DNA from: a virus
Taxonomy: Duplodnaviria; Heunggongvirae; Uroviricota; Caudoviricetes
Strand: one strand, 5' to 3'
IMG/VR virus record: IMGVR_UViG_643348547_000013
DNA: 46,955 nt
Of the stretch, positions 11,313 to 12,618 are shown piece by piece (positions within the stretch are counted from its first letter, which is position 1; each line of letters begins with the position of its first letter). A program made the translations under genes and the position numbers. The notes under the pieces were generated by a model. That model did not search any database, was not told the origin of the DNA, and was given only the letters and a program-made list of their open reading frames with translations.

Positions 11313-12127
11313 GTATGGAGCTGATGGTTAAAGCGATGAAAATTCGAGTGGGTAATCCATTGCGAAAACTGGTTCTGATCAAGCTGGCTGATAATGCCAG
11401 CGATCAGGGTGAGTGCTGGCCCAGCTACCAGCATATTGCTGACCAGTGCGAGATTAGCAAACGTTCTGTGATGAATCATATTGCGGCCCTTTGTGAGTCC
11501 GGGCTGGTAAAAAAAGTCACCCGGAAAGGTGAAAAAGGTAACTCAAGTAATATCTATCTCCTTCATCTGGATGGTGCAGGAGATTCACTAGGGGGTAGTG
11601 CAAATAATTCACTATCTGGTGCAGCAAATTCACCAGGTAGTGCAGGAGTTGCACTAGGGGGTAGTGCAGGAGATTCACCCAGAACCAGTCACTCTTTTGA
11701 ACCAGTCAAAGAACCAGTCAATGAACCAATAGCTGTTGGTGCATCTGCTGATGAGTCTGTGCGAGTTCGTTCAAACCGACCGGAATACTCTCCGGAGTTT
11801 GAGCAGGCATGGCTGGCATATCCCAAACGTGCTGGTGGCAATTCAAAATCTGCAGCCTTCAAAGCCTGGAAAGCCCGTTTGAATGAGGGGGTAAACCCCG
11901 AAACCATGCTGGAAGGTGTGAAACGCTATGCGGGCTGGGTATCTGCGATGGGTAACAGCGGCACACAATTTGTGAAACAGGCTGTCACGTTCTTTGGTCC
12001 GGATCGTCATTTCGAAGAATCCTGGGAAGTTCCTGCGGTATCTGCAGCCAGACGTGAGGACCCGTACTTCAAAGCCAGTTACGACAACGTGGACTACAGC
12101 CAGATCCCGGCAGGATTCAGGGGGTGA
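11309..12127 (+). CDS. putative replication initiation protein with N-terminal winged-HTH
   Basis: N-terminal HTH-like region, Gly/Ser/Ala-rich linker encoded by iteron-like repeats, C-terminal domain; position after the CII-like gene. Confidence 0.6.
   Translation: MSMELMVKAMKIRVGNPLRKLVLIKLADNASDQGECWPSYQHIADQCEISKRSVMNHIAALCESGLVKKVTRKGEKGNSSNIYLLHLDGAGDSLGGSANNSLSGAANSPGSAGVALGGSAGDSPRTSHSFEPVKEPVNEPIAVGASADESVRVRSNRPEYSPEFEQAWLAYPKRAGGNSKSAAFKAWKARLNEGVNPETMLEGVKRYAGWVSAMGNSGTQFVKQAVTFFGPDRHFEESWEVPAVSAARREDPYFKASYDNVDYSQIPAGFRG
11574..11680. repeat. iteron-like direct repeats inside the replication gene (candidate ori)
   Basis: Repeated units TGCAGGAGATTCAC and CACTAGGGGGTAGTGCA at 11576-11603 and 11652-11678. 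Confidence 0.45.
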
Positions 12128-12618
12128 TCATGAGTCTTTTGAATGAAGTTCAGAAATTCATTGAAGCCCATCCGGGGTGTACTTCCGGAGACATTGCGGA
12201 TGCTTTTGCAGGTTACTCACGGCAGCGCGTTCTGCAGTCAGCAAGCAAGTTACGTCAGAGTGGGCGTGTGGCTCACCGTTGTGAAGGGGATACACGCAGA
12301 CATTTTCCGCGCCAGATAAAGATATCGCCGGAGGCGGAACGGCAACCAGTTCGTGAAACCAGACCTGTGCGCAATTTCTATGTCGGCACTAACGACCCGC
12401 GGGAGATTTTATGCCTGACCCGCCAGGCTGAAGAACTGGAGTCCAGGGGCTTATACCGTCGTGCTGCAACGGTGTGGATGGCGGCATTCCGTGAAAGCCA
12501 CTCCCAGCCAGAACGAAACAATTTTCTGGCGCGTCGTGAGCAGTGTTTACGGAAAAGCAGCAAGCGCGCTGTATCGGGTGATGAGTGGTATCTGTCAGGG
12601 AATTACGTGGGGGCTTAA
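12124..12618 (+). CDS. PerC-family transcriptional regulator (Pch-like)
   Basis: QAEELESRGLYRRAATVW motif resembles the conserved PerC core; 164 aa. Confidence 0.55.
   Translation: MIMSLLNEVQKFIEAHPGCTSGDIADAFAGYSRQRVLQSASKLRQSGRVAHRCEGDTRRHFPRQIKISPEAERQPVRETRPVRNFYVGTNDPREILCLTRQAEELESRGLYRRAATVWMAAFRESHSQPERNNFLARREQCLRKSSKRAVSGDEWYLSGNYVGA

Follow-up and report, generated by a model that had tools for sequence, protein, structure and literature searches.

The prophage gene yfdN encodes a PerC-type core joined to a predicted winged helix and lies directly behind the replication initiator gene

The yfdN gene and its product

The window, which was the whole 46,955-nucleotide stretch of Caudoviricetes DNA analysed here (IMG/VR record IMGVR_UViG_643348547_000013), contained the prophage gene yfdN directly behind a replication initiator gene. 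The coding sequence annotated in RefSeq was located on the plus strand at 12124–12618 and encoded 164 amino acids from a GTG codon to the stop codon TAA at 12616–12618. A preceding sequence-only reading had described this open reading frame (ORF) and the PerC-like motif AEELESRGLYRRAATVW within it, and both were found as described. The DNA was 100% identical to the gene named "yfdN: PerC family transcriptional regulator" by RefSeq in the enterotoxigenic Escherichia coli (ETEC) strain ETEC-2265 and in many other strains. The product shared 90% identity over the full 164 residues with K-12 YfdN (b2357), which is encoded in the cryptic prophage CPS-53 (KpLE1). The sequence in the window represents an allele of a common E. 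coli prophage gene that was already known and annotated. Of the 5426 complete E. coli genomes, 2667 (49%) contained sequences at least 90% identical to yfdN, among them K-12, which is negative for the enterocyte effacement locus (LEE). Orthologues were found in 56 phage records, including SfV (orf40), SfII, SfIV, mEp460, and many Stx2c-converting phages, and the orthologue of Salmonella phage ST64B (sb43) was 67% identical. YfdN of K-12 and the orthologues of SfV, SfII, SfIV, mEp460, and ST64B showed no essential difference from the window gene. The family phrog_1324 ("transcriptional activator") covered the whole protein (residues 2–163, E 7.8e-76), which assigned YfdN to this family by full-length similarity. 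Half-protein families matched the N-terminal part (phrog_23071, unknown function) and the C-terminal part (phrog_2608 and phrog_10396). As the gene is very common and already named by RefSeq and PHROGs, its annotation in the window was routine. Neither the gene nor the region matched any entry of PADLOC, which covers defence systems, or of Rfam.

The true start of yfdN is probably the ATG codon at 12130–12132 rather than the annotated GTG, which would give a product of 162 instead of 164 residues. This start was preferred because a Shine–Dalgarno sequence, AGGGGG (12119–12124, plus strand), was spaced 5 nt upstream of it and because relatives begin at the corresponding residue. Nearly all relatives in an alignment of 29 sequences (A1) started with MSL (M3-S4-L5 of the annotated protein), and the annotation of phage Ayreon and of some database clusters begins at the ATG matching 12130.

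The ORF was not a chance occurrence. An exhaustive HMMER search over 1.84 billion cluster representatives gave 103 matching representatives, and about 25 of them were full-length two-domain relatives (140–165 residues) with conserved residues and identities of 26–47%. Antisense ORFs over yfdN, such as that at 12389–12661 on the minus strand, were rejected as spurious because the conservation followed the plus-strand frame.

Domain architecture and predicted fold

YfdN is a two-domain protein, in which an N-terminal winged helix and a C-terminal three-helix module are connected by a linker of about 30 residues. In A1, this arrangement was evident from two conserved blocks, the N-terminal one and the PerC core, with a variable linker between them. 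Residues P17, L105, R113, A114, R138, and C141 were invariant in this alignment. An AlphaFold2 model of YfdN was obtained with a mean predicted local distance difference test (pLDDT) score of 77.6.

The winged helix-turn-helix domain (residues 3–62; 12130–12309, plus strand) was composed of three helices (residues 5–15, 21–27, and 33–46) and a β-hairpin wing formed by two strands (residues 49–54 and 57–62). The family profile matched the MarR structure 3bpv with an E-value of 6.7e-4, and also matched BlaI, MecI, and PapI. In the Foldseek comparison, the modelled domain was superimposed on the DNA-binding domains of ArsR, MarR, BlaI, and AspA with root-mean-square deviation values of 1.5–3 Å and a probability of 1.00. 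Single family members matched the Pfam families MarR_2, Penicillinase_R, HTH_24, or FaeA. The domain was thereby placed among the MarR/BlaI/ArsR-like winged helices by both profile and fold, and its DNA binding is a prediction from this assignment.

The linker (residues 63–91; 12310–12396, plus strand) was variable and predicted to be disordered, with pLDDT values below 50 at residues 65–81, and was the least conserved and most gap-rich segment of A1. The following PerC/ANR-type core (residues 92–145; 12397–12558, plus strand) formed a three-helix unit that was modelled confidently, with pLDDT values above 90. No match was found for the C-terminal module among the solved structures by sequence profile. 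The fold of the core was TPR/MIT-like, and this fold, together with a weak resemblance to the ANR family, suggests that the modelled core is a protein-contact module. The protein ended with a C-terminal tail, W-Y-L-S-G-N-Y-V-G (12586–12612, plus strand), which was found only in the YfdN type and not in PerC and Pch. The tail pattern W.L.G.[YF].G recurred in A1 and in a further alignment, A4, and G159 was nearly invariant.

Comparison with PerC, Pch, and ANR proteins

Residues 100–153 of YfdN (12421–12582) matched the Pfam PerC family (PF06069) with an E-value of 8.9e-10 and a score of 39.1 bits against a gathering score of 22.6, and all 29 members of A1 matched the same family. The motif noted from the sequence was located within this match, at residues 102–118 (12427–12477). 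Authentic comparators were PerC from plasmid pMAR2 of enteropathogenic E. coli (EPEC) E2348/69 (89 residues) and the product of a group-1 pch gene of O157:H7 strain E32511 (104 residues), and a 104-residue Pch-like protein from an O55:H7 plasmid was used as a third. A megablast search with the gene of the latter returned the gene itself only, and a more distant search reached an O157 group-1 pch. Residues 100–155 of YfdN were aligned with residues 6–61 of PerC (56 residues, 32% identity, E 2e-7), and residues 102–151 with residues 7–56 of the O157:H7 group-1 Pch (50 residues, 40% identity, E 2e-8). The relation to PerC and Pch was not confined to the short motif, as the alignment held over these 50–56 residues. 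The multiple alignment with PerC and Pch showed an invariant A..LE..G..RRA...W......C core, and the third helix kept an arginine (R138) and a cysteine (C141).

The shared part corresponded to about the first 55 residues of PerC and Pch, which form three helices, and the C-terminal 35–45 residues of these proteins had no counterpart in YfdN. PF06069 was covered by YfdN at positions 5–58 of 90 only, whereas PerC and the 104-residue Pch-like protein covered positions 1–89. YfdN did not have the single-domain architecture of 90–105 residues that spans the whole model. It was longer than the roughly 100-residue Pch proteins, as the sequence-only reading had noted, because an N-terminal winged helix and a disordered linker are added to the core; in addition, the W.L.G.Y.G tail replaces the C-terminal third. 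The assignment to the PerC family accordingly stood for the core, but YfdN is not a Pch-type protein, since the C-terminal third was lacking and a winged helix was present.

YfdN shares the three-helix core and the carriage on mobile elements with EPEC PerC (pMAR2/pEAF) and with PchA, PchB, and PchC of enterohaemorrhagic E. coli (EHEC), for which LEE activation has been shown. However, the genomic slots differ: yfdN occupies an early replication operon, perC the plasmid per operon, and pch the position of a late-region moron. The PerC-like proteins of phage-inducible chromosomal islands (PICIs), which are EcCIMP1_025 and those of EcCICFT073 and EcCIEDL933, also belong to the PerC family and are encoded on elements related to phages, in both commensal and pathogenic E. 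coli (PMC11773190, PMC6092414). These proteins are encoded on satellites, whereas YfdN is encoded on the helper-type phage itself.

The ANR family, which includes Aar of enteroaggregative E. coli (EAEC), also consists of small three-helix modules. In contrast to YfdN, ANR proteins are single domains of about 60–70 residues without a DNA-binding domain. YfdN matched the ANR model NF033650 over 47 of 54 positions with an E-value of 5.2e-5, and the score of 23 bits was below the cut-off of 32 bits and did not make it an ANR member; it scored better as PerC. The same model matched authentic PerC with an E-value of 1.7e-3. In a fold search of BFVD, phage ANR proteins were the nearest viral folds, with non-significant E-values.

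Position behind the initiator gene and co-inheritance with the Rep tail

The replication initiator gene, rep (11309–12127, plus strand), encoded an N-terminal HTH_36 winged helix and a C-terminal DnaD-like part, and matched phrog_270 (E 2e-88). Its stop codon overlapped the annotated GTG of yfdN, and the stop codon of yfdN overlapped the start of a gene for a Dam-family N6-adenine methyltransferase (12618–13271, plus strand; PF05869, E 1e-45) in the sequence TAATG (12616–12620). The yfdN gene is translationally coupled to both rep and dam. The location in a replication-region operon, claimed from the sequence beforehand, was confirmed by these junctions, and this operon is the rightward early operon of a lambdoid prophage. 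No sigma-70-like promoter or terminator was predicted on the plus strand between rep, yfdN, and dam. In K-12, yfdN is placed between yfdO (a rep remnant) and yfdM (a methyltransferase remnant); these flanking genes are truncated there, whereas they are intact in the window.

The position directly behind the initiator gene of a lambdoid early operon was retained in close and distant relatives. A search with the closer alignment A2 gave 4 loci in genome contigs and 80 loci in viral contigs (IMG/VR), the latter all at least 91% identical. Of the 80 IMG/VR loci, 36 had a Rep of the window type and 43 had a quite different Rep; in 79 of the 80, yfdN was directly behind rep. Downstream of yfdN, 47 of 78 close loci continued with dam and 31 directly with a gene for a protein with a LexA DNA-binding domain.

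At 26–47% identity, in Citrobacter and in metagenomic prophages, yfdN overlapped or abutted the upstream gene in every case. A replication-initiator-type gene was located upstream in the Citrobacter prophage (locus L008, 47% identity), in P0160 (loci L009–L011, 33%), in P0166 (loci L015/L016, 32%), and in P0175 (locus L014, 30%). The downstream genes encoded a LexA-DNA-binding-domain-only protein in L008 and L014, an MT-A70 methylase in L009–L011, and a MethyltransfD12 methylase in L015/L016. On the short contig of P0178 (loci L012/L013, 26%), a partial ORF upstream aligned with the C-terminal region of initiators. The generalization that the upstream Rep always carries Phg_2220_C was dropped; it held for L009–L011, L014, and L015/L016, but not for the Rep of the window or of L008.

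The slot behind yfdN was occupied by Dam (PF05869; 12618–13271 in the window), MT-A70 (PF05063; 5438–6097 in L009–L011), MethyltransfD12 (PF02086; 5444–6268 in L015/L016), or no methyltransferase. This looks like non-orthologous replacement at a fixed position by three unrelated families.

The last 24 residues of Rep (REDPYFKASYDNVDYSQIPAGFRG; 12052–12127, plus strand) formed a mosaic module with yfdN, and the final codons of this tail carried the ribosome-binding site of yfdN. In the loci with the other type of Rep, the DNA homology to the window restarted exactly at 12052, the first codon of the tail. The tail was kept as a peptide among Rep proteins that were only 19–27% identical overall. 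Phage records with the tail numbered 57 and coincided almost completely with the 56 that had YfdN.

Loss of yfdN from related operons

The yfdN gene is non-essential and occupies an optional slot, because it was deleted in phage cdtI and absent from the syntenic phage mEp390. In cdtI, a clean in-frame deletion corresponding to 12208–12602 of the window was found between flanks of 97–99.8% identity. The remaining stub (locus L017, 4001–4099) consisted of 32 codons, and kept the start codon and the TAATG junction with dam, which preserves the translational coupling of rep and dam. At least eight complete E. coli genomes (H97–H104) carried the same deletion allele in one contiguous piece; this count used single-piece junction matches only, since intact genes also score as covered. 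The title of Asakura 2007, as cited in PMC4606577, describes the cdtI prophage as inducible, and the viability of this phage is taken here from that single word.

The complete lambdoid genome of mEp390 contained an operon of repressor, cro, cII-like, rep, LexA-domain, rusA, DUF968/HNH, and Q genes. Its Rep ended with a related tail and was followed directly by the LexA-domain gene, and a profile search of all frames of this genome detected no ORF with YfdN or a PerC core. The slot of yfdN is comparable to the non-essential region of lambda between the replication genes and Q.

Possible functions of YfdN

With moderate confidence, YfdN is interpreted as a non-essential delayed-early phage regulator, which combines DNA targeting by the winged helix with protein contact by the PerC/ANR module. 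The protein would be made with the delayed-early genes upon induction or infection, and would be largely silent in the repressed lysogen. The winged helix would place YfdN on DNA, and the PerC/ANR-type helical module would contact another protein. By analogy with Pch and Aar, YfdN may then relieve silencing by a nucleoid protein or act on a transcription factor; its sites would be phage promoters and perhaps, as a side effect, host promoters. Pch, which is not homologous to DNA-binding proteins, displaces H-NS at LEE1 (PMC4764244), and Aar, which has no DNA-binding domain, binds AggR and H-NS (PMC5570504). The phenotypes found in the literature search were limited to overexpression and transcriptome screens. 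In strain CFT073 under nitric oxide stress, yfdN was induced 12.6-fold along with neighbouring prophage genes (PMC5320621). Overexpression of yfdN from the ASKA library gave a glycogen-deficient phenotype (PMC2853380). Filamentation of UTI89 was caused by a five-gene fragment containing yfdN2, in which the causal gene was not resolved (PMC6206680).

Several observations weigh against this interpretation. A literature search found no experiment on the function of YfdN, and the protein is still listed as "uncharacterized" in EcoCyc, in RefSeq, and in a 2025 interactome preprint (bioRxiv 10.1101/2025.05.07.652715). That the winged helix binds DNA, that the helical module has a protein partner, and that target promoters exist are all predictions. 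The fold matches of three-helix units are promiscuous, and the ANR match was below threshold. The idea of protein contact is not established even for Pch, which reportedly failed to co-precipitate with H-NS (PMC4764244). Moreover, a role linked to replication would account about equally well for the fixed place behind rep and for the inheritance of yfdN together with the Rep tail.

Such a replication-linked role, acting through the Rep tail, was the main rival, and was judged unlikely overall. YfdN would take the position of lambda P, where its TPR-like module would dock on the C-terminal peptide of Rep and aid remodelling of the origin or recruitment of host DnaB–DnaC. The idea was made attractive by adjacency, as yfdN was directly 3′ of the initiator gene, with translational coupling, in every lineage examined (26–100% identity) and behind two unrelated types of Rep. 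Genes similar to those for P, DnaC, or DnaB were not detected in these operons. The tail that is co-inherited with yfdN from the junction at 12052 was conserved as a peptide where DNA homology was gone and occurred in nearly the same phage records as YfdN, and binding of short peptides is typical of TPR/MIT-like folds. However, tight linkage alone could account for the co-occurrence of the tail. YfdN resembled none of the known helicase loaders in sequence or fold, and no family of such loaders (lambda P, DnaC-like) was matched in Pfam, PHROGs, or NCBIfam. The rival was weakened further by cdtI, an inducible prophage by the title cited above, in which yfdN is cleanly deleted, and by mEp390, in which a similar Rep tail is followed directly by the next gene and YfdN is found nowhere. 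The stronger form of this idea, in which YfdN is an essential analogue of P, was downgraded after these two cases.

Regulatory reach of the prophage into the host, as proposed by the sequence-only reading, appeared improbable. In this proposal, YfdN would activate ler/LEE1 or other horizontally acquired host loci in the manner of Pch. The common core, with 40% identity to O157 group-1 Pch and a score above the Pfam threshold, speaks for it, as does the designation of yfdN as "the K12 unique PerC homologue", which was deleted to obtain a clean ler::lacZ reporter strain (PMC5931665, Uhlich et al.). The glycogen phenotype of the ASKA clone indicates that overexpressed yfdN can affect host physiology. 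On the other hand, YfdN lacks the C-terminal 35–45 or so residues of PerC and Pch. Its gene has no predicted promoter of its own and belongs to the early replication operon, whereas the O157:H7 group-1 pch was flanked by the lysis cassette and the gene for the small terminase subunit, a location taken here as a late-region slot of the moron type. The 49% of complete E. coli genomes that contain yfdN include K-12 and ETEC without LEE.

PerC homology is also a poor predictor of LEE activation, because several homologues are inactive or repressing. Only PchA, PchB, and PchC activate ler, while PchD and PchE are inactive and PchE represses curli (PMC5931665, PMC6265319). Among the PICI proteins, the PerC-like genes of EcCIEDL933 and EcCICFT073 left LEE1 fusions unaffected and EcCIMP1_025 silenced LEE1 (PMC11773190). 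No published test of YfdN on ler/LEE1 was found in the literature search. The present data contained no evidence for control of host virulence genes by yfdN, and a Pch-like effect on LEE is poorly supported. The PerC-family label alone does not mark a virulence regulator, because the YfdN subfamily differs from PerC and Pch in architecture and genomic slot, occurs in commensals, and can be lost by phages.

In a further reading, YfdN would act together with, or control, the DNA methyltransferase encoded next to it, for example as a PapI-like winged helix in a methylation-dependent switch. This role would fit the downstream slot with its three methyltransferase families, the coupling to dam, and the weak N-terminal resemblance to PapI/FaeA (2htj, E 0.064; FaeA match in one family member), but is very improbable because many loci have YfdN without an adjacent methyltransferase (31 of 78 close loci and the operons of Citrobacter L008, L014, and phage Ayreon), and because, in addition, cdtI keeps dam without yfdN and the PapI/FaeA similarity is not significant.

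The interpretation as a delayed-early regulator can be extended to the family as a whole, although this extension is speculative and unlikely to hold. YfdN-type proteins would represent a DNA-tethered form of the PerC/ANR contact module, which lambdoid phages would make with the replication genes and which would either clear H-NS-type silencing from phage DNA or dock on the Rep tail, and PerC and Pch would be derivatives of this phage housekeeping function without the winged helix. If true, this would explain how Pch can counter silencing in association with DNA although no DNA-binding domain is recognisable in it. The function of YfdN, if worked out, could show the use of the PerC/ANR module to phages, the likely origin of the EPEC and EHEC virulence regulators.

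Other features of the operon

Iteron-like direct repeats were located within rep (11574–11720), with three 39-nt copies containing GTGCAGGAG..TTCACTAGGGGGTA and three 11-nt copies of AGAACCAGTCA. By analogy with the lambda origin inside gene O, these repeats are probably the replication origin of the phage.

Downstream of dam, a 108-residue protein (13268–13594) consisted of a LexA-type DNA-binding domain only (PF01726, E 3e-19), without the S24 peptidase domain. A LexA-domain-only protein was kept in the operons of the distant relatives L008, L014, and L015 and of mEp390 (gp43), and it might compete at SOS boxes. The best PHROG match of the Dam methylase was phrog_33262, "phosphoadenosine phosphosulfate reductase", and RefSeq names dam of phage cdtI likewise. 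This label was probably propagated from a fused or neighbouring gene and does not reflect a real activity.

The cII-like gene ymfL, positioned after cro and before the replication genes, was interrupted by an IS3-family insertion sequence of 1310 bp (8550–9859, plus strand), which is in the operon of yfdN and about 2.3 kb upstream of this gene. The element carried two overlapping transposase ORFs (8604–8930 and 8927–9817) between terminal inverted repeats of 25 nt (TGAACCGCCCCGGGAATCCTGGAGA), and its target sequence, GAT, was duplicated. The ETEC-2265 prophage, 99.8% identical elsewhere, had no such element. The insertion may be polar on the whole early operon, and may lower or alter transcription into rep, yfdN, and the downstream genes.

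Another insertion that distinguishes this prophage from that of ETEC-2265 was located at 17878–19762 and contained genes for a DUF1706 protein (17977–18495) and an ISL3-family transposase (18514–19734). It adjoined, on the upstream side, a second DNA methyltransferase gene (N6_N4_Mtase, 19746–20801).

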